Source of the DNA: an uncultured bacterium
Lineage (GTDB): Bacteria > Omnitrophota > Omnitrophia > Omnitrophales > Aquincolibacteriaceae
Reading direction: 5' to 3'
Assembly (NCBI GenBank): GCA_964508905.1
Contig: CAZDVO010000002.1
Location: forward strand, 46,330 to 110,329
DNA: 64,000 bases
Part shown: in pieces, positions 1 through 53,361 of the stretch
Position numbering within the stretch: position 1 is the first letter of the stretch
Layout: every line of letters starts with the position of its first letter
The notes under the pieces: generated by a model
The model's input: only the letters and a program-made list of their open reading frames with translations
What the model was told of the DNA's origin: nothing
The model's database searches: none
Program-made: the position numbers and the translations under genes

Positions 1-3000
1 TTGGTAAACTCAGGCACCGGCGAAGTAATGACAGGCGTTGTCGGAATCACATCGTAGACGATGGTATCCGAGAACGTCGCGATATTCATCGCCTTGTCAC
101 GAATCCGATACTGCACCGTCTTCGTTCCGTAGCCGGACGTCAGGGTCAGTGACTTCGTCGTTGCGAATGACTCCCACGAGGACCAGTTCACGCCACCGTC
201 CACAGAAAAAGACATCGCATCCAAACCAGCAGTCGCATCCGAACCCGTCAAAGCAAGATTCACCGACAGCGAGCCGGTGAAAGCATCGCCGTTATTGATC
301 GACACCGATCCCGCCGGCGCCACAGTGTCACGAACGGGGCTCACGGAAACAGAGCCGCTCTCGACCGAGCTGGAGTTCCGGCTCTTAATCGAAAACGTAT
401 TCGTCCCCTCAGACAAACTCACGGTCACGGACCATGTCGTCGAACTATTCAGCGCTACTTTCTCGACCCCATTGATCAGAATCGAGGTGTTAGCCTCTTT
501 GGTTCCCGAAATCACCACGGTGGTCGCGTTCGTATAGACTGGCACCGTCGACGTCACCACGGGCGTTGTCGGGATCACATCGTAGGTGATCGTATCCGAA
601 TAAGTCGCAACGTTCGCGGCCTTATCCTTGAGCTGGTACTGCACCGTCTTCGTGCCATACCCCGCCGTCAGCGTCACCGTCTCGGTCGGGGCAAAAGCTT
701 CCCACGACGTCCACGTCGCCCCACCATCCACCGAAAAGCGCATCGTATCCACTCCCGAGGTCGCATCCGACCCCGTCAACGCGAGCGTCACCGTCGTCGA
801 ACCCGTCGTCGCATCCCCGTTATTGATCGACACCGATCCCGCCGGCGCCACGGTGTCGCGCTTGATAGAAAGAGGCAGTGTCGCGCTTGATTTTCCCAGT
901 GCGTTCAGGCTTGTCACATTCAAAGTATTATCGCCTTCCGCCCCAAGGGTTACCGTTGCCGTCCAGGTAGTTTCATTATCAAGAGACACCACAAGTTTTC
1001 CATTGATTAGGATGGACGTTCCGGCGTCTTTGGTCCCGGAAAGCACAAATGTCGTCTGATTCGTAAACTGTGGAACCGGCGAAGTCACCACGGGCGTTGA
1101 CGGAAAGACCGCTTCCCGAAGCCCGGCATTAATATCGAGCACGAGGCTCGGCTGAAGCGTGATCGAAACGGGCACTTGCTGGGCGGACACCCCCTCCGCC
1201 AATTTTCCCTGTCCCTTGATCGCGGCCATGGCCCAACCACCCTGATAGACCACATTATTGATCTCCGTGCTTCCCCACGCGGCACTGCTCAAGAGGGCTT
1301 TGGTTTGAAGGGCCGCGCCCGAGTTTCGAAGCCCTCCTTCGTCCTCGACTGAAAAAAGCACGAGAGTCCCGTTGGCGAGATTATTGAGATAATCAATGAG
1401 CCGCGTATGCCACACATCCCCCGCGTACGTATCAAAACTCCGGTAATCCGAAATCCGGATACCCGTTGAAGTATCGAACACGAACACATTGATCCCGCGA
1501 GCTCCCGCCCCCCCGCCGCCGCGATTGAACATGACCTTGCCGTCGATCTCAACGGAGCTATCCCCTTGAGAAGTGACCGTAATAACGGGATGGGCATTCA
1601 TCTGCACACCGTTGACCGGGTCCTTAAACCGGGACTGGAGCGCCGTGTAGGCCAGGCTCGGGTTCCGATCGATATCCACAAGCCCAACGCCCGCTCCGCC
1701 CGTATTGTTATTCCAGGCATACGCAAAAGCGCCAACAAGCGTTCCGTTCGTGCGTTCCGCGGAAAGTTCAAAATAGACCTCGTCCCACATCTCACCATTC
1801 ACCTGACTTTTGTTGGCTTCATCCACATAAGCCAACTCCGTGGTCCCCACACCAAATTGCGCGATATACGCGGGCTTGTCCGTGATCGACTGCCATTGAT
1901 CCAATGCATCCTGAAATGTATTGCCCCGACTGGGCGTGATCCCCCACACATCGATGCTCGAAACCAGGGTATTCACCATATCCTCGGTCGAAACCGAAGT
2001 GCAATACCAATTGTTAGTACAGTAAGGTTTCATAAGATAGGGAAACGCCTCAGCGCTCAAAACATGGGATCCAAGCGTGTGAGGATCACCAATCTCGGTG
2101 GTCACAGGATGGAAACTATCCAGCGACTTGATCAATTGAGCCGCTTGCTCCGTAAAAGCAGCCGCGTCTTCGATCGTTGAAAACTTATTTCCATAACGGT
2201 TAAGATCCCAGAGGCTCCCCACAGACCACATCAAAACAGCCGGATGATGCTTATAGGCATTCACCACGGCTGAAACATTGGAAAGATCCGCCTGGGTTCC
2301 ACCCACGGGGAAATCCACGCGCACGACCACCTTGATCCCCTGGCGCCACAGTTCATCCAGGATCTTGATCGCGTCCGCCCCCGTCCCAAAATCCTGGTTC
2401 ACACGGATCGTATTGATCCCCATCTGAGCCATGAGCGCGAAATCCGTCTTGTACCACTTCACATATTCGGCGAGCTGATCCAGCGGAGATTGCGAGGCCG
2501 GGGCCCAGTTGACACCTTGGGAAATGTAGGCCCCTTCCGTCCCCAGCGATCCATCTTCCAGCCGCTCCTGGACAAAGAGACGACGATCCCCATCCAGCAC
2601 GCGGACGATGGACGCCTCGGCCGGCACGGGATTATTGAGCACGATCGTATCGATATAGGTTGCAATATTCCCTGCTTTGTCAGAAACCTGATAACGGACT
2701 TCCTGCTCACCATCGGCTCCCGGCAAGGTGATCGAACGGGTGGCCGAAAAAACCTCCCAATCGGTCCAGGTTTCCCCAAGATCAACAGAAAACCGGACTT
2801 TATCGACACCCGAAAGAGCATCAGAGGCGGTAAGATTCAAGGTCACAACACGGGCGTCCGCCATAGCGGCCCCGTTGTTGATCTTGATCGAGCCCGTCGG
2901 CAGAACGGTATCCCGGATGGTCTGAACGGTCGCGGCCGGACTCTCTTTTCCCGTCGCCATCTTGGCCGTGATCGAAAAGGTTTTCGATCCATCACTCGGC

Positions 3001-6000
3001 AAGGAGACAACGGCCGTCCATGTGGTGGCATAAAAATCCGCCACGTATTGGGTTCCGTTGATGTAAAGATTGGTTTCGGCATCCTTGGTCCCAGAAAGCA
3101 CAAGCTGCGTCGAGTTGATGAAAGCAGGCACAGGCGAAATGATCACGGGCGCTGCCGGCGTAAATTCATAAACGATCGTGTCGCTGAAGGTCGCGATATT
3201 TCCGGCCTTATCGCGAACCTGATATTGAACTTCTTTCGTGGCATACCCCGCCGTCAGCGTGATCGCGCGGGTCGCCGCAAAAGCCTCCCAATCCGTCCAG
3301 GTCGATCCACCGTCCACCGTAAAACGGACCCCATCCACCCCACTCAACGCGTCCGCCGCCGTCAGATTCAGCGTTACGTCCCTCGTACCGGTTGAAGCCG
3401 CGCCATTGTTGATCTTTACTGAGCCTGTCGGCACCGCCCGATCACGGATGGTGGCCACAATGGCCGCCGCGCTCGTTTTCCCTGCGCTCGTTTTCACGGT
3501 CACCGAGAATGTTTTTGATCCATCGGCTGACAGAGAAACGGTCGCCGTCCATGAAGTCGCGTTAAAATCCGCCGTGGTTTTAGTCCCATTGATATAGAGA
3601 TAGGTCTGAGCTTCCTTGGTTCCCGAGAGAACCAGCTGGGTCGCATTCGTATAAGCCGGAACGGTCGATGTCACGACCGGCGTCGCGGGAAGAAATTCAT
3701 AAACGATCGTATCTTTCAATGTGACGAAATTGCCCACCCGGTCGCGGATCTGAAACTGAACCTCTTTCGTCCCATACCCGGCCGCCAACGTGATCGCGCG
3801 GGTTGGGGCAAAAGCTTCCCAATTCGTCCACGTCTTCCCCCCATCCACCGAAAAACGCATGGCATCCACACCCGAGGTCGTATCGGCGGCCGTCAAATTC
3901 AGCGTCACAGCCGCCGTCCCGGTGGATGAGGCTCCGTTATTGATCTTGATCGAACCGGTCGGAGCCGTGGTGTCACGACGAAGAACAAGGTTCTGGGTCG
4001 CGCAGGCAACGCCAAGAATGCTCTTGGCCAGCAACGTAACCGTATTATTCCCTTCCGAAGAGAGTGTCACTGTCGCCGTCCAGGTCAACGAGGTATCCGC
4101 CGGAGCCACAAGCTGGCCATTCACGTAAACCGAACTATACGCGGCTTTGGTCCCAGAAATCGTCACGGTCTTCTGGCCAAACACCGTCGGCGTCGAAGGA
4201 TCCAGCACCGGGGCAGCCGGCGCCGTGGCCCCGGTAAGCGCCCGGGTAGCCCCTGAACGATAAACTTCGAAAGCGCTGCTCTGGAGGCGGGTCAGCGCCG
4301 GGACATCATCCAGGGTGATCGCGACCGAAGGAAGACTGATCCAAATGTCCGGGGCCCCACTCCACGTAAAATAAACACGCGTCCGCAAAGGTACGGACAT
4401 GATTTGCTCCTGAGCCAGGACCTTCGCTACGGCCGAACGCTGCGCCAATTCGTTGTACCGAGCATCCATCACCGCCATCATCCAACTTTGAGAGGCCCAG
4501 GTCGTCGAGGGGTTAGAATCCTTAAAATGAGGCACCGCCAGGAGGGCCGCGAAGGCCAGAACGCTCTGGGGGTCCATTCCCTCCAGGATCGTAACGTTGT
4601 TCTTGAAGTCCGTGCTCGTAAATCCCGTCACCGGCGGCGCTTTTTTCGCGTACGTAGTCAACTGGGAATCCGAGATCGTGGGTGCGATCACCTGCGTCGT
4701 CGCAAAAAGCATCTTGGCCAGGGCCTGATCACGCGCGCTCAGCCCCGCCAGCAACGCGGTCCTTTGCGATGAAGTATAAGTAGAAATTTTCCATTGAAAA
4801 TTTTCGCGCGCCTGGAACACGGCATCGTCATAGCGCGTGGACAAGGCGGGATTCGCCAGTAAAGCCGCAAGCTCCGCGGAAAATTCGGCGCAGAGCGCGG
4901 ACATGTCATTACTCACGATCGTGTCTTTATAAGTGCCCGTATTCCCAAGGCGGTCGCGGACCTGACAGACGACCTCATTGGTTCCGATCTTCAAAGGAAG
5001 GGTCAACGGTTTTGTCGCGGCGAAAGCTTCCCACTCCGTCCATGTATTTCCCCCATCCATCGAAAAGCGCATGGAATCAACACCCGCCCCCGCGTCGGTG
5101 ACGGCCACATTCAGGATCACGTTCGCCGAACTCGTCGATGAAGCACCATTATTGATCTTAACCGATCCGGTGGGCGCTTTGGTGTCGCGGATGACCCGGA
5201 TCGTTTGGGTAGCCGTTGAAACCCCCAGAGCGCTTTTGGCGAGAAGCGCAATGGAGTTAGAGCCTTCGGAACTCAGGGAAACATTCGCCGTCCAGGTCGT
5301 CGAGGCATCCGCGGCGGCAACCAGTTTTCCCTTCACATAAACCGCGCTGTAGGCTTCTTTAGTTCCGCTCAAGGTGATCGTTGATTGGTTGGTCACAAGC
5401 AAAACGGAAGGGTCTAGTTGCGGAAGCGCGGGGGCAGCCGCATCCGTCCCATTCAGGCGAAGATAGAAAGTCCCGCTGGCATAACTGGCTGTGGTATTTC
5501 CCGGCTCTACATAAAAATCAATCGCACGGATCCTGGAAAGATCCACGCTCGACTGGATCTGACTGAGATTCATCACCCAATAACGCTGCGTGGAACTCGC
5601 CACTTGAGTTAACTGAAAACCGGCGGTATTGCCCTCGACATCTTCAAAGCGGACGTTCACCGTATGGGCACCCCCGGTAAGTCCGACCGTTAGGTTGCCA
5701 AGCCCCGAGAGGTTGCCGGTCTCCTGACCCGCCGTGGAGTAATCATTAAAATCCATGGTGATCCCCGACTTCGTCCCCGCCGTTTTGACATTGTATTTGA
5801 CCGCGAACTTTCCGGACGAAAAGCTGATCGCCGTGGTACTGCTGGAACCATCCATCACATGCGGAAGAGGTGTCCCCGGCAAGGTTGAAACATTCGATGT
5901 CGTAAGGCCAGACGTGTAAGAGATCGCGACAAGAGGCGCCGCCACAGCCGCCGCAACGTAAGCTTTTTCGGGAAGCCTGGGATCCGTTGCCGCCGGGGAA

Positions 6001-6080
6001 TAAGCGACCTCCGCGCGAACGACCGGAACCGGCATCAAACAAAGCGATAAAGCTACGACCACGGAAACGGCTGATTTCAT
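1..6080 (-). CDS. Secreted giant surface protein, 3' end beyond window (>2026 aa): signal peptide, clan GH-A TIM-barrel glycosidase-like domain, beta-sandwich, then tandem Ig/Fn3-like repeats
   Basis: Start and signal peptide: ATG is the reverse complement of cat at 6078-6080, preceded by RBS GGAGG (rc of cctcc 6088-6092), translating MKSAVSVVVALSLCLMPVPVVRAEVAYSPAATDPRLPEK. Reading frame: I translated the minus strand by hand through 5400 and spot-checked at 2160-2460 and 1-120, all in frame with 6080 and with no stop codons. Absence from the ORF track: consistent with a missing stop codon beyond position 1. Domain evidence: the region around 2160-2460 gives KWYKTDFALMAQMGINTIRV ... GIKVVVRVDFPVGG ... 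NAYKHHPAVLMWSVGSLWDLNRYG, the clan GH-A beta-3/beta-4 pattern (compare LacZ RDRNHPSVIIWSLGNE). Repeat evidence: the plus-strand mini-ORFs containing PLLIDTDPAGATVSR-like strings (38-1059, 2728-5340) are antisense shadows of ~95-aa repeats, e.g. DTIVYDVIPTTPVITSPVP. Confidence 0.75.
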   Translation of the reverse strand, partial: MKSAVSVVVALSLCLMPVPVVRAEVAYSPAATDPRLPEKAYVAAAVAAPLVAISYTSGLTTSNVSTLPGTPLPHVMDGSSSTTAISFSSGKFAVKYNVKTAGTKSGITMDFNDYSTAGQETGNLSGLGNLTVGLTGGAHTVNVRFEDVEGNTAGFQLTQVASSTQRYWVMNLSQIQSSVDLSRIRAIDFYVEPGNTTASYASGTFYLRLNGTDAAAPALPQLDPSVLLVTNQSTITLSGTKEAYSAVYVKGKLVAAADASTTWTANVSLSSEGSNSIALLAKSALGVSTATQTIRVIRDTKAPTGSVKINNGASSTSSANVILNVAVTDAGAGVDSMRFSMDGGNTWTEWEAFAATKPLTLPLKIGTNEVVCQVRDRLGNTGTYKDTIVSNDMSALCAEFSAELAALLANPALSTRYDDAVFQARENFQWKISTYTSSQRTALLAGLSARDQALAKMLFATTQVIAPTISDSQLTTYAKKAPPVTGFTSTDFKNNVTILEGMDPQSVLAFAALLAVPHFKDSNPSTTWASQSWMMAVMDARYNELAQRSAVAKVLAQEQIMSVPLRTRVYFTWSGAPDIWISLPSVAITLDDVPALTRLQSSAFEVYRSGATRALTGATAPAAPVLDPSTPTVFGQKTVTISGTKAAYSSVYVNGQLVAPADTSLTWTATVTLSSEGNNTVTLLAKSILGVACATQNLVLRRDTTAPTGSIKINNGASSTGTAAVTLNLTAADTTSGVDAMRFSVDGGKTWTNWEAFAPTRAITLAAGYGTKEVQFQIRDRVGNFVTLKDTIVYEFLPATPVVTSTVPAYTNATQLVLSGTKEAQTYLYINGTKTTADFNATSWTATVSLSADGSKTFSVTVKTSAGKTSAAAIVATIRDRAVPTGSVKINNGAASTGTRDVTLNLTAADALSGVDGVRFTVDGGSTWTDWEAFAATRAITLTAGYATKEVQYQVRDKAGNIATFSDTIVYEFTPAAPVIISPVPAFINSTQLVLSGTKDAETNLYINGTQYVADFYATTWTAVVSLPSDGSKTFSITAKMATGKESPAATVQTIRDTVLPTGSIKINNGAAMADARVVTLNLTASDALSGVDKVRFSVDLGETWTDWEVFSATRSITLPGADGEQEVRYQVSDKAGNIATYIDTIVLNNPVPAEASIVRVLDGDRRLFVQERLEDGSLGTEGAYISQGVNWAPASQSPLDQLAEYVKWYKTDFALMAQMGINTIRVNQDFGTGADAIKILDELWRQGIKVVVRVDFPVGGTQADLSNVSAVVNAYKHHPAVLMWSVGSLWDLNRYGNKFSTIEDAAAFTEQAAQLIKSLDSFHPVTTEIGDPHTLGSHVLSAEAFPYLMKPYCTNNWYCTSVSTEDMVNTLVSSIDVWGITPSRGNTFQDALDQWQSITDKPAYIAQFGVGTTELAYVDEANKSQVNGEMWDEVYFELSAERTNGTLVGAFAYAWNNNTGGAGVGLVDIDRNPSLAYTALQSRFKDPVNGVQMNAHPVITVTSQGDSSVEIDGKVMFNRGGGGAGARGINVFVFDTSTGIRISDYRSFDTYAGDVWHTRLIDYLNNLANGTLVLFSVEDEGGLRNSGAALQTKALLSSAAWGSTEINNVVYQGGWAMAAIKGQGKLAEGVSAQQVPVSITLQPSLVLDINAGLREAVFPSTPVVTSPVPQFTNQTTFVLSGTKDAGTSILINGKLVVSLDNETTWTATVTLGAEGDNTLNVTSLNALGKSSATLPLSIKRDTVAPAGSVSINNGDATTGSTTVTLALTGSDATSGVDTMRFSVDGGATWTSWEAFAPTETVTLTAGYGTKTVQYQLKDKAANVATYSDTITYDVIPTTPVVTSTVPVYTNATTVVISGTKEANTSILINGVEKVALNSSTTWSVTVSLSEGTNTFSIKSRNSSSVESGSVSVSPVRDTVAPAGSVSINNGDAFTGSLSVNLALTGSDATAGLDAMSFSVDGGVNWSSWESFATTKSLTLTSGYGTKTVQYRIRDKAMNIATFSDTIVYDVIPTTPVITSPVPEFT
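1500..2600 (-). other. Clan GH-A (GH2/GH5/GH42-like) TIM-barrel domain inside the secreted protein; acid/base Glu apparently replaced (VGNE -> VGSL)
   Basis: Hand translation gives MAQMGINTIRV (beta-1 region), AAFTEQAAQLIKSLDSFHPVTTEIGDP, and HHPAVLMWSVGSLWDLN where GH-A enzymes carry NE(P). Family assignment is from motif memory only. Confidence 0.45.
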
Positions 6081-6202
6081 GTAAACCTCCCGATTAATTT
6101 TTTGTATTAAAAAAGTTTTAATGTCGAAAAGATAACAGCTTGTTGTGTTTTCGGCAAGGGGTAAGCGGACATTTTTAAAGCTGGGGAATACAGAACGTAA
6201 CC
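6081..6202 (-). promoter_or_regulatory. Intergenic leader/promoter region of the secreted-protein gene (downstream of nadE stop)
   Basis: AT-rich 120-bp spacer between the nadE stop (6203) and the ATG at 6080, with an RBS adjacent to the start. No specific promoter hexamers claimed. Confidence 0.3.
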
Positions 6203-7888
6203 CTATATATTATAACGATTTGTGATTGGCATGCGGCGGCCGAACCAGGCCTTTTCAGTGACACGAAGAATGGGCGGCGTCTGGCGGCGCTTGTATTCAT
6301 TATGGTCGACTTTCCGCATAACATCCTCCACTAATGGGGTCAGACACAATTTCCCTAAAATTGTGTCTGACCCCTTTTTGAGACGGCGGAAGATCTCATC
6401 ACACCCCAGATTCTTTTCGATATACAAACGAAGGATCGCATCCAGGATCTCGTACGGCGGGAGCGAATCCTGATCTTTCTGATTCGGACGAAGTTCCGCC
6501 GAAGGCGCTTTGATCAACGTGGCTTCCGGGATCACCACGCCGAGCGAATTCCGATAACGCGCGAGGCGGTAAACATCCGTCTTGTAAACATCGCCGATCA
6601 CGGCAAGGCCACCCGCCATATCCCCATAGAGCGTGCAATACCCCATCGCAAGCTCGGATTTATTCCCGGTCGTCAGCACCAGCCGGCCCTCGTCATTAGA
6701 GAGATACATCAGTTCGAGACCGCGCAATCTCGCCTGAAGATTTTCCATCGCCAAACTCGGCCCACGATCCACGGGCCATGCCCCGCGCAGCTCGCTGTTC
6801 AAGAATGTTCCGTACATCTTCGTGATAGGATGCACTTCAAATTCGATTCCAAGATGCTTCGCCAAAAGCTCCGCATCCTTCCAACTCCCCTCCGAAGAAT
6901 ACGGCCCGGGCATCGTAACGCCCTTCACCGCATCCTTCCCCAATGCATCGCCGGCAATCGTGGCCACCAAGGCGGAATCAATGCCCCCGCTCAATCCGAT
7001 CAGGGCTTTCTTGAACCCGTTCTTCCCGAAATAATCCCGGACGCCGAGGACAAGCGCACGATAAATTTCTTCAACCGTTTTCAACCGCGCAGGTTGAAAG
7101 GGTTTTCCACCGACAAGAAAGAGGCCTTCTTCGAACGCGGGAGCCTGGAAGGTCACACGGCCTTTCTCGTTCATCAGAAGACTTCGCCCGTCGAAGATCA
7201 GATCATCCTGCCCGCCCACTTGATTCACATACAGGATCGGAAAACCGTAGCGGCGGGTATGCCCGGCGAGAAGTTTTTCCCGAGCGGCCGCCACCCCGGC
7301 ATAATAAGGCGATGCGGAAAGATTGAGGACCAGGTCCGCTTTTTTCCGGGCGATCGCCGCGAGAGGCTTCACTTCGTATCGGTCATCCCAAATATCTTCG
7401 CAGATGGTCAGACCGATCTTGATCCCTCTGAAAGGAACGACCAGCGTCTCGGCGCCGGGCTCAAAAAAGATCTCTTCCAGGAAAACGTCGTAGGTGGGAA
7501 GCAACTGCTTGTGATAGACCGCGCGCACCTTACCGTTTTCAATCCACGCCGCGGCGTTATAGGAGCATGATGCCGGGTCCAGCTTTCGAGAAGAGGGCCC
7601 TGTCCCCTTGTCAATAAAACCCAGAACCGCGGCGATCTTTTTGCCACGCGTCGCCGCCGCGATACGTTTGAGCTGACGCAGGCCGTCGGCCACGAACTGT
7701 TTTTTATTCGCGAGATCCCACACAGGATAACCGCAAAGCGCCGCTTCGGGGAAAACGATCAGGTCCGCGCCCTGGGCTTCCGCGTCGGCGATCCAGCGGA
7801 GGATCTTCGTGGCGTTCGCCGCATAGTCCCCGACCGTCGGGTTCATCTGCGCGAGGGCGATCTTCAGAGGTGTCTTCAGGGGCTTCAT
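6203..7888 (-). CDS. nadE: Glutamine-dependent NAD(+) synthetase (C-N hydrolase domain plus NAD synthetase domain)
   Basis: 561 aa. N-terminal nitrilase-type motif LIVFPEAALCGYP. C-terminal PP-loop SGGIDSALVATIAGDALG. Length and architecture match bacterial NadE. Stop is TAG at 6203-6205. Confidence 0.9.
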   Translation of the reverse strand: MKPLKTPLKIALAQMNPTVGDYAANATKILRWIADAEAQGADLIVFPEAALCGYPVWDLANKKQFVADGLRQLKRIAAATRGKKIAAVLGFIDKGTGPSSRKLDPASCSYNAAAWIENGKVRAVYHKQLLPTYDVFLEEIFFEPGAETLVVPFRGIKIGLTICEDIWDDRYEVKPLAAIARKKADLVLNLSASPYYAGVAAAREKLLAGHTRRYGFPILYVNQVGGQDDLIFDGRSLLMNEKGRVTFQAPAFEEGLFLVGGKPFQPARLKTVEEIYRALVLGVRDYFGKNGFKKALIGLSGGIDSALVATIAGDALGKDAVKGVTMPGPYSSEGSWKDAELLAKHLGIEFEVHPITKMYGTFLNSELRGAWPVDRGPSLAMENLQARLRGLELMYLSNDEGRLVLTTGNKSELAMGYCTLYGDMAGGLAVIGDVYKTDVYRLARYRNSLGVVIPEATLIKAPSAELRPNQKDQDSLPPYEILDAILRLYIEKNLGCDEIFRRLKKGSDTILGKLCLTPLVEDVMRKVDHNEYKRRQTPPILRVTEKAWFGRRMPITNRYNI

Positions 7889-8023: not shown

Positions 8024-11000
8024 CTATGCGGAAGCGGCGACACGAGACTGGGTGGCCACAAAATTCGCGAGCTCGGCCATGAGAGACTCCAACCCGCCCA
8101 GCTTTTCCACGGACACGAAGTGATACCCCATCGACCAGATCGCGTCGTTGAGCAATTTATCAGCCGCCAACAGCGTGGACGCTGTTTGCTTGAGCGGATT
8201 CCGGGCCCCCACCACGCTCAAGAGATGCCGACGAGAACCGATCTTCCGAGTCACGACAGAGTCTTCACGATCCGTGATAAGAGCCACGGATTGCCCCAGC
8301 GGCGCCGCACTGTTATAGAAACTCGCAAAGGCTCCGACAAACTCGTTCTCATTGGCAAATGCACGAACTGCGAAATTCTGCGGCAAAGCACCCATCTGGC
8401 TAAGAGCCGCAAGTTCTTTCTCGAACGTAGCGACCTCAGAAGCTTCCGCGATCAATGCGAGCACCACCGCGGCCTTCGGGTTATATCGCGCAAAGGTTAC
8501 CAAAGGCAGCACGCTCGCCGCATCCGGAATCCCCTGCCGCTGGTCAACCACCATCCGTTCCGTTGAAGCTGTCGCGGATGAGCTCATGATCTTGTTAAAC
8601 ACCGGCCACTTCTGCGCAAAAGCGGAAGGAACCGTCGAAACCTGCTGAAAGTGACGGGTACCTGCAAAAAGCTCCGGGGCAATCTCGGAAGCATATGCCG
8701 GAGTGCTCGACAGGAGCGGCGAAACCGTATTCGCCGCCACCCGGATCGCCGTCCCGATCTTTGCCCCTAAGCTGCTCGCATCCACCGCAAGGGCCAACGG
8801 AGTATCAGTCATCTCATAAGTTCGCGCTTCGGAGCGAGATAGAACCTCATGGGCCCGCGCATCAGATTTCAAGGGAGTAACAACCGCTTCAGGCGCTATA
8901 GACTGAACAACACCCGTTGACGTGACGGCTTTCAGTCTGGCAATGGCCACGACAAGCGCTTCATGGGCAGGATTGGGGCGACGTTCCACGCCTGTATTTG
9001 CAGACCCCACAGAATAAAGCCTTCCCGTATCTCCAGGCCCACCCGTTTCAAATTGCTCTTCGGAAACACCGTAGACAAGCTCGGCAGGCATGGTCTTCAG
9101 GATTTCTCCCAAGGAAGCGACCATCGTGGGGTTATTGACCGATTGAAACATATCAACTAAGGCGAGAATAGCACCTTGTGCAGGATCTATAACTTCATAA
9201 GGTCTTGTATCCCCCGTGCGATACTTCAGCTCTTCAACGAGAACGGGAATGCCGCTAAGATCCTGTAGCTTAAAACGCGCCTGCGCAGCAGCAATGCGCA
9301 CATCCAGATATTTATGTTTCAATTCCTTGCCGAGTTCTCGCAAAGCGGCGAGGTCATTCAGCCGAGTAATAGCCGCCCAACGAATATGAGGATTTTCGTC
9401 GCCCAAGATATCGATCAATATTGGAATAGCCCGCGGATCGTTGAGCACCCCAAGCGTATTGATAGCCTCCACCCGGCGGTTATTCTTGCGTTCCTCAAAA
9501 ATCCCCCAAAGCCAAATACGGAAACTCAGAATCCCCCCAAGAACCGTTCCCAGGACAAACCCCGCGACCACGGATGTCATCGATCCCATTAAATATCCCA
9601 CCAGGCCACCCATAACGATACTCCCGAGAAATGAGATCATTGAACCGTGGTCACACCACTTGGGCTGAAGATCCGATATGGCTTTCTGGAATTGTTTTTC
9701 TTGCTCGGGCGTCAGGCGGGCTTGCCCTGAGTTTGCCGAACGGGATTCTGAGCGGGACTTTACCTGGGGTTCAAGAATGCTTAACGCTTTCAGAACAGCA
9801 TCCCGAACCAAGAGATCAGGATCCCCGGCAACCGCTTTTAACGCAGGGATCGCCTGAGATTCTTTGATCCCACCAAGAATCTTAGCCGCAGCCATTCGAC
9901 GATCGGCGACCTTCCCCGGAAGCAAAACCCCACCCTTTCGAGGTTGGAGATCCATGATCAAATGCTGAATCAACGCTTGTCTCAAAACACGCACCTCTTC
10001 CAGGGCTCTAGATCCGAGGATTGGTTCAACATCTTTATCCAACCTGCCGGACTGCCAAAGGATCTCTTGCAAGCCCCGCGCGGGATCTACGGGAATTGGC
10101 GCCGCATAATCATAAACGGTCGTTGCGATACCAGCCTGAGACAACGCCCCCCGAAACGCCAACGAGCCGCGAATCTGGAGCAATGGCGCATGCATAAAAA
10201 TGGCCGAACGACCTTGATATCCCGAAGCCAGTTCTCTTTTAAGAATATCGACAGAAAAAACGCCGTTGTCCGTCATTCCTTGGGACGCCTTCTCCACCCA
10301 TATCGCTTCAGCGGGTACTCCGGCTCGAACCAGAGCATCTTTCATCACTAAAGCCTCCGCACGAACGGATTCCCCCGTCTGTCCATTCGTCCCACGATCG
10401 GGATCTTCAGGAAGCGGTTTGATATGTTTGCCAAAGCGCCCGGATACGATAACCCTGGACATTTTGTGAGCAAAAAAGATCTTAGCCGCCTCCTGAGCCA
10501 CGGCTTCACTGTCGGGACTTCCGAAAATCACCAAAAGATCAGCTTCTCGAGGCAGTGCATCCCGCTTAGCCATCAAAGCGACGATCTGCTGCGCTTCTTT
10601 TTCTCGAATGGATTGAAGAATCGCGCCGGCGGATTCTTCAGCAGAACGGTTCGTGTTATCGATCTCAACGGCATCCGCGGCTTTCCTGAAAGGAGCCACG
10701 GGGCGGATACTATCGATACGGTCACGTTCCAAAAGATCCCGCTTCACCTGCTCGAGCGTGATCTGTTTTCCGCCCCCCTCAAAATCACGCATTCTCCGCT
10801 TCGCACGAACATCGGGATCCGCCGTCAGAAAAAACTTATACGGTGTATCAGGAAAAACATCCGCCCCCACATTCCGGCCTTCAATCACCATATTGTCGGC
10901 TTCCCCAAGCTCACGTCCGGTTTGAAAAACCCAACGGAGCACGGCAGAATGGCGTGAAACAAGTGCAACGGCATTACCCACCTCGGGACTCCGGATACTT

Positions 11001-14000
11001 TCCGTCAAAGGGACCCCATCACGAAAGACCACTGTTTTCCCTTCGGCATATTTCACATCGATCCGTGTGCGAGCCAGCATGCTCTCGATCCCCGCAGCAT
11101 CATCCAGATCCAGCTTTTCATTCAAGGCCTTCTCAGCCACAGCTCGATTCAAAACACCAAGCTCAATGTGCTTATAGCCAAGCGCTTGGGCAAGCTTACG
11201 CGCCACAGTTCCCTTCCCCGTCGCCGAAGCCCCATCCATGGCAATCACCGTGGTTTTAAGCGGGTTCAGCTTAAGATCCAACTCCCGCGACTCAGAGCGA
11301 CCGACCATTTGACTGGCCGCCCTGACCTGGAGTTCGATCTCATTCCCCTGCCTCATGACAGGAATGCCGAAGAAATCCTTCTCCACACCGTCGGGCAAAC
11401 CGTCCAGTTCCCTTTTCACATCAGCTGTGCGCATGTCGTTCCGCCATCCCTCATTCATCATAGCCCGCAGCACCAAGGCACCGGCATCACGAATGGCTGC
11501 TTTTCTTAGTTCAGGCGCCTCTGATCTTACAAGGTCCGTTCGGATAGCAATGTCTCCGCTCCCAGAAATTTGAGATAACTGGGCAAGAAACTTCATAAAC
11601 TTCACGTACTGACGATAACCCCTTCCATGTTCGATCAAATAATTACAAATCCAGACGGTCCCGAGAATGATATCCAGATCATCTCGAAGGCTTTTGCGTA
11701 ACTGAGCCTCCTCGGCTCCGAACAATTGGCTAATAGTAGCTTTCAAAACCTTTATTTGAGTATGGTCTAAAAGAGGCGCTTGAAGATGCGGACGGGCCGC
11801 CATTTCAAGCCGGTATTCGTCATAGCGCTCCGTCAGCCCCTTCAACCCTTTTGGAGCCAGCCATGTCGTCATGGTTTCCAATTGATGAAGAGGCAACTTG
11901 TTATAACGATCATCGAGCGATGCCGCATCGGCCACAACATGCAGGACCAAGTACGGCATGAGCGTTCCGGAAGAAAGGTACCCTTTGTATCCCTTCGGAA
12001 CCTCGAGAAATTTTTTGGCGCGCAATTCTCCAAGATAAGTAGGGCCGGCCTCCATATGTTTCAATACGATCGCGGCTATCATTTCCTTTTCCTCTGCGGC
12101 CATCGGCAGAGGTGCTAGAAATTTACGAGCAATATCAGAACCTCTTTTTTCATGCCCCGTTCCATTCAGATCCTCAGAATATCCCGTATCATGGAATCGA
12201 ATCGCCAAACGAAGCGCCTGCTGTTCCTCAAGCGATAATTTGTCAAAGAAATCCTTCAACGCTTTTAAGCTCTTCCGATACCGCGCTTTGGTTGCATCCT
12301 TTGTTCCTTCAGGCATCCGTCCAAGGAAATAAGCGAAGTCCCCACGGGTAAGCGCTCTAAAATAGTTCTCCACCTGCACCATGTGTTGGGCGCGCCCCTC
12401 ATCGTCCTTGAGAATTTTCTGGTAGGCCGGGATGTCTTCGATGGCAATGATCTGCGATCCCGGATCCGCCTGCGCGGGCATCAGGCGCGATTGAGCTGAG
12501 TTTGTCGAGCGAGATTCGGAGCGACCACGCCCATTCGGTTTCGACATATGCTGAAGACTGATAAGAGCCAAAAGAACTCCGACCCCAACGCAAGCGTATG
12601 TCGCTGTGGGATTAGCATCAAAAAAAGCATGCAGGTCTCTGATCCAACCAATCTCATTTGCACTCACATGAGCAAGCAATGGGAGGGGCATAAAAGAGGG
12701 ATATCTCTCATTCCAATCTGCTTCGTCGTAAGCATGGTCCCTATCGCCACCTCTATACGCCGGTCCAGATGACCTACCCACCTCTCGCTCCAAGCGATCC
12801 GCTTCTTCCCGCTCAGCGCGTTCCATCTCTTCCCTCGCTATTCTTTTTTCATATTCCGCAAAGTCCTTCAGCGCCACTTCCGAACGAGGATCGCCCATTT
12901 TTCTTAATGCTTCCGCCGCAGCTCTTCCGGCATACTTGTACAACTCGTCCATCAGAGCCGACACCGCCCGAAGGTCCCCGATCACTCCCAACTGAGCAGC
13001 AACAGCCTTATTAAAATTGCTACCAAACCTCCGAATTCCAAGAGCTTCAATCAGCATGGGAACGGCCACAGCTCCTCGGACTCCCATCGCTTTCACTAAA
13101 TCTATAGCCAACGCATCGTTACGAGTAGTCTTTATAGCTTCAAGCAAGGCCTCCAAACTCGCCTCATCTGTCATCTGACTAAGCAAATGAACGGCGAGAG
13201 AGCGATTGCCGAGTCCGCCATGCAAAACCTCAGACAGCACGGGAATTGCTCTGGGGTCCTTCAGCTCACCCAAAGCAATCGCCACGAAATAACGAAAATC
13301 CCATCGTTGATCTTTTAACGTAGCATCAAGCGCAGAGGCAAAATGTTCTTTGAGTTCCCTCAGAGATTTTTTTGCTAAAGATTTGCGATCGCGTCCATAA
13401 TTATTAAACCTACCATCCCACCACTTGGGCTGGAGATCACTCAACACCTTCCGGAATTGTTTTTCCTGCTCGAGCGTCAGGCGGGCTTGCCCTGAGTCTG
13501 TCGAACGGGACTCAGAACGCAAACTCTTCCTCGACTTGATTGCTTCCAAAGATTCAGCCGCTTGTTTCGAGATCTCCTGGCTTCGATAAGTCACAGCATC
13601 ATTCAACAATTGTTCCACCGCGGGGGAATCGAATTCGGCTAAAGCGCTAACAATCAAAGCCTTTGTTCCCGCGGAGATCGGTTCGCGAGCAAGACCCGTT
13701 TTGTAAGCGTCATCGTAAAAGGCTCCAATCAAGGCTCTGAATGATTTCAAACTGCCGGCTTTAGCATACGCGGCCAGTTGTTCCACCGCCCGAGCACAAA
13801 CAGAAGGATCTTCGTCCCTCATAAGAGCCCGCAAACTCCGCAGAGCCTCAGCACCCACTTCAAAACGAGTCGGCTGGGGTCGCCTTAAAGAATTTACGGC
13901 ATAAAGAAAACACGTGATCATGCCGGCGAGGGCAAAGATCAACACAGCTGTTTGATGATCCTTTATGAAGAGAGAGAGAGGCTCGTTCCCGGCAACAGCA

Positions 14001-16518
14001 AGAAGCGAAAGAGGAATGAAGGAATTATGGCTCTCCCATTCGGCTCTATCGTAAGCATAGTCCCTGTCGCCGCCTCGATACGCCCCGGGGAAGGACCTGA
14101 GCCCCCTCGCCGATTGACGACGAGCGCCGAGAACCACAGGAAGAACGAAAATACCCACAAACGCGCTAATACCTAGCACGCGACCACCATATACGGCGAA
14201 AAAATAGTGCATCTTACTGATTCTATACAATGCCTTTGCCGCAGCCTCGGAATCATAGCCGAAACCACGCCGAAATATTGCTCTAAGCCTGGGGATCGCG
14301 GATGAATCATTAATTTCACTACTTTCGCCACGATCCACAAGACATTCGAAAGCTCTGTAAAACATTGGCCACTCTTGGCTATAAAATGCTGATTTTAAAG
14401 CGATAGTTACGGAGCGATCAGGGATCTCACGAAGTGCCTCCTGAGCATAAAAAAAAGATTTCGACCCCGACAAGGCGTTAATCAATTCAGGCACAGCCGC
14501 AGGGTCCCTTACTGCCCCCAGGGCATTTTGGGCAGAATACCTTACCGAAACAGGCTCGCTCTCATCATTACAAATTCTCACCAACGCGGGAATCCGCGAA
14601 ATTTCATCTATTGCTTTTCCACGCAACGGGATCATCCCCATCACCGCCGCGAGCATTAACTTTGCCGCGATAACACTACGCCTTCTAGGATTGATTTCTT
14701 CCTTATCCGTTCGCCGCGCTTCAGCACGAGCCACAGAGGACGTCGATGCAGGCGTCGGCGAACCAAAAGTAGAGGTAGTTACAGACTTAGAAAGGGACGG
14801 ACGGAGTGAGGCCTTTTCAGAATGGATCAGGCCGGAGATAAGGCCGCGAATCTCGGAACGCCAGGCTCGGGTTTGATCCTGGCCCGTGACGACAATACGA
14901 TCGCTAATCGGATTCATACCCAGGAGCGGAACGGCCTGGGAGGTCGCAAAGTCCCGCGACCCCATCATGGCCTTGAGATAAATATCATGGTCGCGTTTCG
15001 AAACTTCATTGATGCGCGGGGTGATCTGGAGATAGGAACAATGCTTGGACACCGCAAGCTTCTTGAGGCCGTCGGTGTGGAAACCGCCTGTCACGATCAC
15101 GGCGCGATCCTTCTTTTCCAGGTTCATGCGTTTGAGAGCATTCGCAAACATCTTGTTTTCACGAGCTACAGCCACAGCATAAAATTGTATTGCCTGCTCG
15201 TAAATCGGCTTAACCTTCTCAACTTCCGAGGAGAGACTGCGTCCCACCGGGGAAGTTCCTGAGGCGCATAGCTCTTCGTACTCAGCGCGAGTTAATTCGA
15301 GTGAAAATAATCGGCGTAGCAGATAAAGCTCCCGCGACTTCGAAAGATATTCTTTTTCATCCGCGGTCCTAGCCAAAACCGTCAGGAGCTTCTCTTTCAA
15401 ACGAACCGTCTCCTCCTGCAGGCCCTTCCCCTCCATCTCCTGCATCAAAATGATGTATTGAGCATACCGCATCCAATTTGGCCACGGGGCCATGGAAAAG
15501 TCTTTGGAGAGTTTATTGAAAACAAGATCAAAGGCGCGGCGCATCATGGAATAACCATCCGTCGTCCGGCTGACAGTCTTCAGCAGGTCTGTTTCGGGGG
15601 CTTGCAGGAGGGTTTTGAAGGCATCGAGAATCTCTTTGGAAACCTTGCGCCGGCCAAGCTCTGATAAAAACGCATCGGCTTCGCGGCGGGCTTTTTCACG
15701 GTCGATCTTGGAGCCGATGGCCTGTAAACGGAAATAGCGTATCAGGAAAGGATATGAGTCCTGATAAAAGGCGTCTGAAAGGTCGGTCTTAAGATGCTTG
15801 CGGCTTCCTTCACCCAAAGCCTTGATCCAGCTTTCAAAGGAAACGGTCCCCACCCCCAACGCTTCCTCTTGTCGAACGAGATTCAGGAGGTCTTTATTCA
15901 GCTTCGATGAAAAACGCCGGTCGAGCGCGGCCCTCAACGAACCCAGGAATTTCTCCGCGGTCTTTTCTTTTTTCACAACGCTGATAAACGCATCACGATC
16001 CTTCTTATAGGCATCAAGGTCTTCAATCCCCCACCCTTCGGTTTTGTCCGTCGACTCGATCAAAAAGGACTCAGGCCCGGTAAGATAGCCTTCTTGCATA
16101 AGCTTGTCCGTGACCTTCTTATTGAAATCGGGGTGTTTCGGGAAAAGGCGAAAGAGCTCGGGCTGAAGCTTATTCCCCGCGCCTTCAAGGAGGAGCAACT
16201 TCACGGACGAGTTTTTTTCGATATAGCCAAGAAGCTTTTCGATATTCTTCTCGGCCTGATAATTCCCGTGCGCGGACTGGATATGAATGAATGTGGGGGC
16301 CAGAGGATCCCCCATCATGGTATCGGTCACCTGCCCGAGCTCCGTCGGGATTGCAAGGGAGGCGGCGTTGAGCGCGGACACCTCGGCACGTCCGGCCAAG
16401 GATTGCGGCTGGAGCGTGGACACACTGATCCCTTGGGCAGGAGCGCCCCAGCTGATCTGCGTCGAGACGAAACAAAAAATTGTCACAAGGCTGATCGCTT
16501 TAAGCGTTTTGCTGAAGG
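8024..16518 (-). CDS. Giant multidomain membrane protein (~2,830 aa): N-terminal module paralogous to the 10,119-aa neighbour, HEAT repeats, TM helices, HD-domain-like, cytidylate-kinase-like and DUF218/YdcF-like domains
   Basis: The ORF track gives 8024..16588 with a non-ATG start. The likely true start is the ATG at 16518, with RBS AAAGGAG 10 nt upstream (rc of 16519-16540), giving MRSFSKTLKAISLVTIFCFVSTQISWGAPAQG, a signal/anchor sequence. Domain motifs seen: VIAMDGASATGKGTVARKLAQALGYKHIELGVLNRAV (Cmk P-loop); LAIRFHDTGY...GHEKRGSDIARKFL...LKHMEAG...HVVADAASLDD (HD-like); LLVIFGSPDSEAV...SGRFG...GESVRAEALVMKDALVRAGVPAEAIWVEKASQGMTDNG (DUF218); multiple PRAIPxL HEAT-like units; hydrophobic helices. 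Confidence 0.85.
9650..9760 (-). repeat. Intragenic ~105-bp DNA repeat, copy A (encodes ...QARLTPEQEKQFQKAISDLQPKWCDH...)
   Basis: ccacttgggctgaagatccgatatggctttctggaattgtttttcttgctcgggcgtcaggcgggcttgccctgagtttgccgaacgggattctgagcgggact is ~85% identical to 13430-13535. A weaker third copy lies at 12481-12545. Confidence 0.7.
10050..10560 (-). other. DUF218 (YdcF/ElyC/SanA-like) domain
   Basis: LLVIFGSPDSEAVAQEAAKIFFAHKMSRVIVSGRFG...GESVRAEALVMKDALVRAGVPAEAIWVEKASQGMTDNGVFSVDILKR fits the DUF218 pattern (vvLGg..., iivSGG..., sEAevM..yL...GVP...I..E..S.nT.eNa). Confidence 0.5.
10640..11270 (-). other. Cytidylate kinase (Cmk)-like P-loop NMP kinase domain embedded in giant protein
   Basis: TTVIAMDGASATGKGTVARKLAQALGYKHIELGVLNRAVA...RIDVKYAEGKTVVFRDG...ALVSRHSAVLRWV...NMVIEGRNVGADVFPDTPYKFFLTADPDVRAKRR matches the Cmk consensus (IAIDGPAGSGKGTVAK...YLDSGAMYRA...). 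P-loop DNA at ~11190-11250. Confidence 0.6.
11800..12300 (-). other. HD-domain-like (metal-dependent phosphohydrolase) segment
   Basis: H...HD...H...D spacing: RFHDTGY, GHEKRGSDIARKF, LKHMEAG, HVVADAASLDD. The DNA for FHDTG is at ~12185-12200. Confidence 0.4.
13420..13535 (-). repeat. Intragenic ~105-bp DNA repeat, copy B (encodes SRSESRSTDSGQARLTLEQEKQFRKVLSDLQPKWWDG)
   Basis: Direct DNA-level similarity to 9650-9760, read off the sequence. A second repeat family lies at 12690-12790 and 14025-14110 (tcgtaagcatRgtccctRtcgccRcctcKatacgcc), encoding AYRGGDRD(H/Y)AYD.A.W followed by a TM helix. Confidence 0.7.
14900..16518 (-). other. Conserved N-terminal ~540-aa module shared with the 10,119-aa protein (possible TraB/GumN-like fold)
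   Basis: TFIHIQSAHGNYQAEKNIEKLLGYI...VKLLLLEGAGNKLQPELF...KVTDKLMQEGYLTGPESFLI and DRAVIVTGGFHTDGLKKLAVSKHCSYLQITPRI align with IILHVQDAHINEEAQRNIANILRYF...LGLVSLEGASGELNTDLF...VADYFLREGRLTGPEYLAV and LSAIVTGGFHTPGIEKYLQEKGLSYIVVAPRI of the larger protein. Confidence 0.6.
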
Positions 16519-16588
16519 ATCTCATATCCGTTTTTCTCCTTTGATCGTCCATGTTTTTAAAACTAAAACACCGGGATTGCCGTCCCAA

Positions 16589-48589: not shown

Positions 48590-49423
48590 TTATACACAAT
48601 CTTCGATAATTGTCTTCAAAACATTGAAAGCTTTTTGCTGCTCCTGTTCATTGAAGATCTCATGGAAAAATCCATCGAAGGATGTTTTCTCTTTCCGAGG
48701 CGTCACAAGCCTGTCAAAAAAGAGGGCCGAAGCCTTAGGGTCCACCACATATTCCTTCCCCGGGACAAGCATATGGACCGGGAACGGAACCGAAAGGATC
48801 GCCTGCCCCTGAAGCCGGGCCATGGTCCTGAGGATCTCAGCCAGCAGCCGCGCGGACATGAATCTGAGAATCAACGGATCCCTTTTGTGATTGGCCACCT
48901 CCGACGGATCGTGGCTCAGAGTCCTCGACCGAACAGGGTTCTTGTAAACAAACCGCGGCATCACACATCGCAAAAGCTGATTCGCGGGCGCGATCCATCC
49001 GGACAGCCTGAGCCCCAAAAAAGGCGCCGAGAGAATGAGCAGCTTGACGCCCTCCGGAACTTTCATCGCCCAGCGAATAGCAATAAGCCCGCCCAGGCTG
49101 TGTCCCAAGAAGATGCATTGCTTCGGGATCGCGTGCTTCTGCCGGAGATGCGCGATAAACGCATTCATATCCTTAAGATAATCGTCAAATTCCGCGATAT
49201 CGCCGCGGATCCCTTCGGACCGCCCCATGCCTCGGAGATCCATGATCGCGAATTGCGCTGAAAGGCCGCGCATTTTTTCCGGGAATTTTACATAGCGTCC
49301 CGAGTGCTCCCCGTAGCCATGGATCATGATCACGGTATGACGCGCTCCGGGCACTGCAAAGAAGCGGTAAAAGAGTTTTGCTCCGTCCCCGCCGCAGAAG
49401 AAGTCTTCGCTCCACGCGCCCAT
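48590..49423 (-). CDS. Alpha/beta-hydrolase (lysophospholipase / monoacylglycerol lipase family)
   Basis: 277 aa. VIMIHGYGEHSGRY (Hydrolase_4-type HG..EHS..Y), nucleophile elbow GHSLGG, C-terminal Asp/His region. ATG at 49421-49423 abuts the fadD stop. Confidence 0.8.
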   Translation of the reverse strand: MGAWSEDFFCGGDGAKLFYRFFAVPGARHTVIMIHGYGEHSGRYVKFPEKMRGLSAQFAIMDLRGMGRSEGIRGDIAEFDDYLKDMNAFIAHLRQKHAIPKQCIFLGHSLGGLIAIRWAMKVPEGVKLLILSAPFLGLRLSGWIAPANQLLRCVMPRFVYKNPVRSRTLSHDPSEVANHKRDPLILRFMSARLLAEILRTMARLQGQAILSVPFPVHMLVPGKEYVVDPKASALFFDRLVTPRKEKTSFDGFFHEIFNEQEQQKAFNVLKTIIEDCV

Positions 49424-49424
49424 G

Positions 49425-51296: not shown

Positions 51297-51306
51297 GGGC
51301 TGGCCC

Positions 51307-52038: not shown

Positions 52039-52137
52039 GCCAAACTCCTTTATAGTAGGGGCTTCTACTGTTGCGATAAAAACAACGGCACATTATAACT
52101 TAATTCATCGCGAAAAAAATCAGTTTTTCATTCCACG

Positions 52138-53325: not shown

Positions 53326-53361
53326 GGGATATTTCTCCAAGGAGGTTAAGCAAAGATGGAG

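Follow-up and report, generated by a model that had tools for sequence, protein, structure and literature searches.

A clan GH-A barrel that has lost its catalytic residues is retained in a large secreted protein of an Omnitrophota bacterium

Introduction

What does a glycoside hydrolase (GH) barrel do in a bacterial surface protein when the residues needed for catalysis are no longer there? The question is raised by a stretch of 64,000 nucleotides (nt) from an uncultured Omnitrophota bacterium (contig CAZDVO010000002.1 of assembly GCA_964508905.1; hereafter the window, meaning the whole stretch), whose first 6,080 nt hold the 5' part of a minus-strand gene for a large secreted protein. A first-pass annotation of this DNA had described a repeat-rich protein with a clan GH-A triosephosphate isomerase (TIM) barrel in which the acid/base Glu seemed to be mutated. 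It had proposed a non-catalytic pseudo-glycosidase or an unusual catalytic variant, and had linked the protein to giant neighbouring genes as one carbohydrate-directed surface apparatus. Here we find that this domain, which we call barrel-1, has lost both catalytic Glu residues together with much of its active site, and is under purifying selection in a protein that most probably remains a glycanase.

Results

Barrel-1 lacks both catalytic Glu residues and two active-site loops

The features on which the argument rests are the following, all on the minus strand (aa, amino acids; AF2, AlphaFold2; pLDDT, predicted local distance difference test; dN/dS, ratio of nonsynonymous to synonymous substitution rates).

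1..6080 (-): 5' part of the gene for a secreted multidomain surface or extracellular protein, 2026 codons in the frame from 6080 to 3; open frame and start codon, colinear with a 2837-aa orthologue
1611..2633 (-): predicted catalytically dead clan GH-A (beta/alpha)8 barrel (barrel-1), aa 1150-1490; homologues, alignments, AF2, Foldseek, dN/dS 0.16
2211..2216 (-): S1289-L1290, codons AGC CTC, at the family's Asn-Glu (general acid/base) after beta-4; alignments, orthologue codons identical
2001..2021 (-): C1354-TNNWY-C1360, a Cys-bracketed aromatic stretch; absent from all other homologues aligned, kept in the orthologue, low pLDDT
1929..1937 (-): T1382-P-S1384 in place of the conserved Asn-x-Tyr after beta-6; alignment, T-P-N in the orthologue
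1857..1859 (-): Q1408, codon CAA, at the position of the catalytic nucleophile Glu, end of beta-7; alignments and model

The motif HHPAVLMWSVGSLWDL (aa 1278-1293, read downward from window position 2249) runs HHPAVLMWSVG and then SL. Every one of 17 aligned relatives has Glu at the acid/base position, within GNE in 16 and GSE in P0005, and the window protein has Leu there; the NE to SL replacement reported earlier is therefore real. An alignment to find the nucleophile, which the first-pass annotation had suggested, shows that the second Glu is gone as well: relatives read xGEFGAD or SEAGGD, and the window protein reads IAQFGVG. In place of the Asn-Glu acid/base pair and the Glu nucleophile that define clan GH-A, barrel-1 thus has S1289-L1290 and Q1408. 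The structure prediction, also foreseen in that annotation, agrees, with S-L directly after beta-4 (model strand 133-137) and Q1408 ending beta-7 (strand 255-260) in the AF2 model. When 197 family barrels were re-aligned, the acid/base Glu was found in 187 and the nucleophile Glu in 188.

The losses are confined to one part of the domain. Defining a conserved column as one with at least 85% conservation across the family barrels gave 45 such columns, and barrel-1 keeps 29 and has lost 16 (the automatic count was 27 kept; the G and R of VGLVDIDR, missed through a split hidden Markov model envelope and retained in the MAFFT alignment, were added). All 16 conserved columns ahead of the acid/base motif are intact, from G1189 to G1288 and including the HPAxLxW context, and all 16 true losses fall from that motif onward. 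They are the substitutions N1289S, E1290L, N1292D, N1382T, Y1384S, E1408Q, D1412G, Q1424K, F1454Y and D1458N, and the deletion of the active-site loops DEWWK ("WWK") and NDEEW ("D...EE"). In the beta-5/alpha-5 region barrel-1 also has an 11-residue insertion of its own, CTNNWYCTSVS, whose two Cys could form a disulfide and whose CTNNWYC stretch may contact a ligand.

In BuGH158, a member of the nearest structurally characterized family, mutating N136, E137 or E220 to Ala abolishes activity in each case (PMC7157763). Because barrel-1 has lost both Glu residues, the beta-6 Asn and Tyr and two loops, we conclude from its sequence that it is incapable of glycosidic-bond hydrolysis through the retaining GH-A mechanism. 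Of the two possibilities put forward for this domain in the first-pass annotation, a pseudo-glycosidase is thus to be preferred, and an unusual variant is left very unlikely. Such a catalyst would have to work through other residues, for example E1329, or through an external or substrate-assisted nucleophile or base. E1329 lies in beta-5, is found in both orthologues and corresponds to Ala, Phe or His in relatives, and plant myrosinases offer a precedent, as they function without the acid/base Glu. Against this stand the simultaneous loss of both Glu residues, the preceding Asn, the beta-6 Tyr and the two loops, and the inactivity of each BuGH158 mutant; moreover, we know of no retaining GH-A enzyme that functions without its nucleophile Glu.

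Barrel-1 belongs to a large GH-A family closest to GH158

A search of a 5.8-billion-protein collection returned 32 relatives of the barrel, the best being P0001 (E = 7e-94) and P0002 (E = 9e-93), with 44-49% identity in the top five. The AF2 model of aa 1150-1645 (pLDDT 81.7, predicted template modelling score 0.79) has eight beta-alpha units. Almost all of the top 50 Foldseek matches in the PDB are GH158 and GH2 proteins, with one GH72 enzyme (Gel4), at E-values from 1e-16 to 1e-11; GH158 ranks first (E ~1e-16), followed by GH2 glucuronidases and GH72 Gel4. Homologues, model and fold search therefore bear out the earlier placement of a clan GH-A TIM barrel at aa ~1150-1490.

By sequence, the nearest solved structure is GH158(Pro), PDB 9ORO (phmmer E = 1.6e-4), in which KDHPAVLMWALGNESELN is aligned to KHHPAVLMWSVGSLWDLN. 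A family profile searched against the PDB also gave GH158(Pro) as its best match (3.4e-21), ahead of 9FZ9 (1.4e-15) and human beta-glucuronidase (1.6e-15); the GH158 sequence match spans just ~70-140 residues in the neighbourhood of beta-3 to beta-5, and GH2 enzymes reach 1.6e-15 with the same profile. The second-best match, PDB 9FZ9/9G4N, is a 537-aa "GH2 catalytic domain-containing protein" that has the DGWWK motif in common with the family and can be aligned with profile positions 22-294. Of full-length structures, it may come closest to representing the wider family.

The GH158 proteins BuGH158 (PDB 6PAL) and GH158(Pro) (PDB 9ORO/9P25) are thus the nearest solved relatives of barrel-1 by both sequence and fold. 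Barrel-1 resembles them in its clan GH-A barrel, in the HPAxLMWxxGNE context after beta-4 and in having an accessory beta domain C-terminal to the barrel. It differs in lacking equivalents of N136, E137 and E220, and in that an ILEI/GG domain (PF15711) follows the barrel in place of the eight-stranded Ig-like domain of GH158. The earlier comparison with LacZ and GH2 holds only approximately. Pfam Glyco_hydro_2_C (PF02836) scores 17.8 bits in the window protein against a cut-off of 21, and the Pfam scan gave no match to Glyco_hydro_2_N or Glyco_hydro_2, so we rejected filing barrel-1 under GH2. Because the GH2 model stays below threshold, the family assignment rests on homologues and fold rather than on Pfam.

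The barrel's own family is large, with 8179 matches at E<=1e-3 and 1228 at E<=1e-30 when its profile was run against 1.84 billion representative proteins; we found no direct biochemical characterization of this family. Relatives such as P0001, P0003, P0036, P0042 and P0048 (Pfam GH2_C or GH72-like) are 44-58% identical to the window barrel and have in common with it the succession of barrel and ILEI domain and modular, Ig-rich giant architectures. This barrel-ILEI cassette occurs in 47 of 183 family proteins, counting the window protein and its orthologue, and P0001 and P0003 are stand-alone barrel-plus-ILEI proteins of 571-572 aa. In these relatives GNE, the nucleophile Glu, the beta-6 Tyr and the loops DEWWK and NDEEW are still present, whereas barrel-1 has lost all of them and gained its 11-residue insertion.

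In locus L016 (4191-7716; also in L017 and L018) the catalytically intact P0003 lies directly downstream of a 584-aa processive GT2 protein (cellulose-synthase-like) and upstream of a 1580-aa VWA protein. The arrangement is like that of a synthase-dependent exopolysaccharide operon that encodes a hydrolase of its own; in exopolysaccharide synthase operons a hydrolase sits beside the synthase.

The dead barrel is maintained by purifying selection

A scan of species-representative genomes found an orthologue of the window gene in a Candidatus Omnitrophota metagenome-assembled genome (DAOSLF010000013.1, here L001), 87% identical over barrel and ILEI domain. A metagenome scan found the same orthologous gene in two more assemblies, L010 and L011, and the L001, L010 and L011 proteins are identical. 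Window gene and orthologue are colinear over aa 1-2026 and 84.6% identical at the DNA level over 5.6 kb, and both have nadE upstream; past aa 1890 identity falls to 35-53%. The codons AGC CTC and CAA and the Cys loop are identical in the orthologue, and adjacent codons differ at synonymous sites. Reaching CTC from a Glu codon (GAR) requires three base changes.

In one pairwise comparison, window gene against orthologue, Nei-Gojobori dN/dS was 0.16 for barrel-1, 0.11 for the ILEI domain that follows it (ILEI-1), 0.23 for the whole protein and 0.11-0.21 for the spacer repeats. In this comparison barrel-1 is under purifying selection. It therefore has both marks of a pseudoenzyme domain: homology at E = 7e-94 to relatives that keep both Glu residues, with 16 of 45 conserved positions gone, and maintenance, seen in the low dN/dS and in substitutions common to both members of the pair.

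Because the codons are identical in the orthologue and dN/dS is 0.16, we regard barrel-1 as a maintained pseudoenzyme domain rather than a product of decay or sequencing error. That the substitutions are a sequencing or assembly artefact, or belong to a decaying pseudogene, is scarcely credible, and nothing in its favour came to light. The frame is uninterrupted over 2026 codons, the same codons recur in three public assemblies, and a change from Glu to Leu that takes three base changes would have to have been produced by error in a domain under constraint.

A second, intact barrel suggests that the protein is still an enzyme

The complete orthologue (2837 aa) carries a second barrel at aa ~2100-2460 in which GNE, IGEFGAD, DEWWK and NDEEW are all intact. 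This barrel-2 keeps 44 of the 45 conserved positions and passes the Pfam GH2_C threshold with 56.6 bits. The order in the orthologue is ILEI-1, further Ig/OmpL47 domains, barrel-2, two more ILEI domains and the stop codon. Because this intact barrel lies beyond the point at which the window ends, the window protein is likely still an enzyme: by orthology, the whole protein is most probably a glycanase in which the dead barrel precedes a live one. The idea that the protein is non-catalytic as a whole, which the first-pass annotation had allowed, is therefore probably wrong. Genome and metagenome scans for the window protein's own C-terminus returned only the orthologue, in L001, L010 and L011, and looking up the exact sequence of the adjacent NadE protein yielded no record.

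One relative, P0042 (2126 aa), which may be a paralogue or an orthologue, matches the orthologue with 66% identity over aa 1-1152 and 56% over aa 1657-2827, and lacks barrel-1 and ILEI-1. In the lineage of the window protein and L001, therefore, the cassette either entered the repeat array by insertion or arose there by duplication. By BLASTP barrel-1 and barrel-2 are 43-44% identical, and P0001-P0004 match barrel-2 with 52-57% identity. A neighbour-joining tree gives barrel-1 a long branch next to P0036 and the barrel-2 clade, which fits accelerated change after catalysis was lost.

Barrels without a catalytic Glu are concentrated in proteins that have more than one barrel, occurring in 3 of 8 multi-barrel lineages and in 2 of 173 single-barrel proteins (Fisher's exact test, p = 5.5e-4; p = 0.0075 without the window lineage). 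The multi-barrel cases are the window lineage, the third barrel of P0050 (aa 909-1230, R/A at the two positions) and the first barrel of P0122 (aa 328-644, G/G). P0050 and P0122 look like independent instances of a "dead plus live barrel" design. Because dead barrels are enriched in multi-barrel proteins, redundancy appears to permit the loss of Glu. The single-barrel proteins without a catalytic Glu are P0004 and P0147. In P0004 (345 aa), a close relative, Lys replaces the nucleophile and the C-terminus is divergent and of low complexity; we take it for a probable frameshift or truncation in the gene call and not for a second dead barrel.

A duplicated barrel freed from catalysis might be nothing but a relic, a rigid spacer in a rod without a ligand of its own. 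The long branch fits such an origin, as do the deletion of DEWWK and NDEEW with their conserved Trp, through which the ancestral subsite may have gone, and a dN/dS close to that of the spacer repeats. Still, a 340-aa barrel is a costly spacer, and it has been retained together with an ILEI partner that is more constrained than itself. A new Cys-bracketed aromatic loop has been added and is identical in both genomes, and the nucleophile has turned into an isosteric Gln and not into a random residue. For these reasons we consider a relic unlikely, though it deserves serious attention.

The surface protein is a chain of repeats that carries the cassette

No stop codon interrupts the minus-strand frame between window positions 6209 and 1; its first ATG is at 6080, and its stop lies beyond position 1, giving a product of at least 2026 aa. 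The ORF is absent from the ORF list because the frame runs off the window's end, as the first-pass annotation had recognized, and its description of a repeat-rich secreted protein longer than 2000 aa is borne out by this length, by a signal peptide identified by eye and by the Ig-like and OmpL47-type pairs. Plus-strand ORFs within 1-6080 (e.g. 2490-3395) were taken as antisense shadows of the long minus-strand gene and set aside. In addition to the barrel, the gene has these parts.

6084..6088 (-): ribosome-binding site GGAGG, 5 nt upstream of the ATG at 6080; read from the sequence
6012..6080 (-): Sec-type signal peptide, aa 1-23, MKSAVSVVVALSLCLMPVPVVRA|EV; by-eye n/h/c-region pattern, no predictor score
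5436..6008 (-): N-terminal domain, probably all-beta, aa 25-215; no Pfam, NCBIfam or PDB sequence match, dN/dS 0.26
4911..5435 (-): Ig-like + OmpL47-type beta-domain pair 1, aa 216-390; Glucodextran_B-like match at aa 221-296, NF047446/NF047441, motif positions
4221..4910 (-): ~230-aa insert without repeat motifs, aa 391-620; no family match, orthologue 88% identical, dN/dS 0.22
2634..4220 (-): Ig-like + OmpL47-type pairs 2-4, aa 621-1149; family models and motif positions
1146..1610 (-): ILEI/GG domain (ILEI-1), aa 1491-1645, directly after barrel-1; PF15711, dN/dS 0.11
3..1145 (-): Ig-like + OmpL47-type pairs 5-6 and the first 16 aa of Ig-like domain 7, aa 1646-2026; models and motifs

Family models and motif positions thus give six Ig-like + OmpL47-type pairs and the beginning of a seventh Ig-like domain. 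The OmpL47-type repeats match NCBIfam NF047446 with 110.4 bits (cut-off 40) in four stretches, and six copies are recognized by motif. ILEI-1 matches PF15711 with 52 bits (cut-off 27, E = 1e-13) over model positions 1-90 of 90 at aa 1528-1624, and its phmmer matches in the PDB are FAM3C, FAM3B and the POMGnT1 stem domain.

Neither the N-terminal domain nor the ~230-aa insert gave a Pfam, NCBIfam or PDB sequence match. Homologue searches with aa 24-620 and with aa 24-215 returned nothing, the first probably because it was swamped by repeat words (8000 candidates). An AF2 single-sequence model of aa 24-215 is all-beta and unreliable (pLDDT 48.7); a role like that of a carbohydrate-binding module (CBM) would be a guess for this domain. 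The insert, which is also found in P0042, looks helical from its composition rather than from any prediction.

Neighbouring genes do not support a joint system with the giant ORFs

The genes nearest to the surface-protein gene in the window are as follows.

6203-7888: nadE, glutamine-dependent NAD synthase, the immediate upstream gene, between the surface-protein gene and the large ORFs
8024-16588 (-): ORF of 2854 aa; HEAT repeats (e.g. aa ~1087-1166 and 2388-2414), cytidylate kinase at aa 1782-1995 (E = 6.5e-50), DUF218
16871-47230 (-): ORF of 10119 aa; in the 10000 residues scanned, Pfam found only DUF218 and a weak AKAP7/2H phosphoesterase-like match, at aa ~9350-9740 in the C-terminal tenth

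The 2854-aa frame represents an odd giant fusion or else several genes without intervening stop codons. DUF218 is common to both large ORFs, and no carbohydrate-related Pfam domains were found in either. Downstream of the orthologue lie ogt, argS, miaA and hflX. Because the flanking genes are housekeeping genes and the large ORFs are without carbohydrate-related domains, the link to the giant genes is unsupported, and we rejected the earlier proposal that they form one carbohydrate-directed system with the surface gene.

Further upstream, beyond the giant ORF and on the same strand, a run of lipid-related genes (48590-55395, minus strand) encodes an S33 hydrolase, an acyl-CoA synthetase-like AMP-binding enzyme, a thiolase and a cyclic nucleoside monophosphate-binding, patatin-like phospholipase.

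Discussion

In regard to function, we favour, with modest confidence, a role in which barrel-1 and ILEI-1 together recognize glycans without catalysis, as a CBM-like dock or a clamp that holds the chain, and serve the live barrel. This Candidatus Omnitrophota gene would encode a multidomain protein that is exported by Sec, shaped like a rod and directed at glycans, with the Ig-like + OmpL47-type pairs acting as spacers. The dead cassette came from an insertion or a duplication within the array of repeats. In barrel-1 the hydrolytic machinery is dismantled, the residues that determine the fold are kept and the CTNNWYC loop is new. Barrel-1 and ILEI-1 would recognize a glycan or hold its chain, and barrel-2, with two more ILEI domains, would cut it. 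The isosteric change from Glu to Gln at the nucleophile and the conserved aromatic Cys loop hint that ligand contact has been retained or re-shaped. The stem domain of POMGnT1 reportedly binds carbohydrate, and by analogy the ILEI domain is a possible sugar-binding domain. As to substrate, one might guess at a beta-glucan, possibly beta-1,3-linked, because the nearest families are the GH158 endo-beta-1,3-glucanases and the GH72 beta-1,3-glucanosyltransferases.

Several points weigh against a glycan-recognition module of this kind. The conserved Trp of the deleted loops would be expected to line the -1 subsite of related GH-A enzymes; the original -1 subsite can be argued to be gone because the loops that bear this Trp are lost, and the ancestral sugar site may thus have been destroyed. 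Purifying selection on barrel-1 could reflect a purely structural or spacer role, and the dN/dS values come from a single pair of genes. The second barrel of the window protein is something we infer from the orthologue rather than see, and the repeat layouts of the two proteins diverge after aa ~1890. The active relative P0003 adjoins a processive GT2 synthase, an adjacency that suggests processing of a self-made exopolysaccharide no less than action on glycans of prey or host. Finally, synonymous divergence between the window gene and its orthologue is a mosaic. The comparison of window 6203-7888 (nadE) and 1-6080 with L010 1328-3031 and 3116-11629 gives a dS of 0.3-0.5 in most domains of the surface protein and of 1.0-1.15 in the signal peptide, ILEI-1 and Ig pair 6, and the nadE proteins are only 72% identical (dS ~1.56). 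This pattern suggests that large parts of the surface gene have recently recombined, or been transferred, between two Omnitrophota lineages.

Alternatively, barrel-1 may have been re-purposed for a ligand that is not a glycan, such as a protein partner. Glycosidase folds have been re-used to bind protein partners in the GH18-like XIP-I and the GH13-like 4F2hc heavy chain, and both the extensive remodelling at and after the active-site motifs and the novel loop would suit such a change; none of our data fixes the class of ligand. However, barrel-1 is still joined to an ILEI/GG domain, in the orthologue an intact glycanase barrel is part of the same chain, and the accessory modules of modular glycanases usually bind glycans, so we hold a non-glycan ligand to be improbable.

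The favoured role in glycan recognition also admits a bolder form, which we put forward tentatively. Barrel-1 could represent a new kind of glycan-recognition module, a GH-A barrel in which the -1 loops have been replaced by a disulfide-constrained CTNNWYC loop, with a specificity unlike that of the protein's own catalytic barrel, and "dead plus live" could be a recurring design of the family. If this is true, barrel-1 could, for example, attach to an envelope glycan of a host or prey, and cutting would fall to the distal live barrel.

Comparison with known systems places barrel-1 among glycosidase folds that have outlived their activity. In YKL-40 (CHI3L1) a Leu occupies the position of the catalytic Glu. 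Barrel-1 is like the GH18 chi-lectins, which have been described as a class (PMC3662789), in keeping a glycosidase TIM barrel after loss of the catalytic acid, here as read from sequence alone. Unlike barrel-1, chi-lectins belong to GH18, a family of another clan with a substrate-assisted mechanism, and are eukaryotic stand-alone proteins, whereas barrel-1 is a module in a bacterial multidomain protein, probably with a live copy beside it. In a similar way, the ILEI/GG relatives FAM3B, FAM3C and POMGnT1 are eukaryotic secreted or Golgi proteins, whereas the bacterial ILEI/GG domain is a serial accessory module of GH-A barrels. Within Omnitrophota, "Dockerin-type" giant proteins contain ILEI domains, and glycosyl hydrolases are found downstream of giant genes (West-Roberts et al. 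2023, bioRxiv 10.1101/2023.11.21.568195). The window gene, which lies downstream of the 10119-aa and 2854-aa ORFs on the same strand in a member of this phylum, fits that co-location, but its product is much smaller than those giants and has no dockerin match.

Our findings bear on how glycosidase-like domains are read more broadly. Dead glycosidase folds that serve as binding modules are well known in eukaryotes, the chi-lectins among them, and are poorly documented in bacterial modular glycanases. A live and a dead cassette in one polypeptide, together with a relative that lacks the dead copy, amount to a natural experiment on the conversion of a glycosidase active site. They also carry a warning for annotation, since either barrel would earn the protein the label "glycoside hydrolase" though one of the two cannot, by its sequence features, be catalytic. 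Characterization of the large ILEI-associated GH-A family to which both barrels belong would add to CAZy, and would aid the reading of surface proteins in Omnitrophota, bacteria that are uncultivated and suspected to be host-dependent or predatory.

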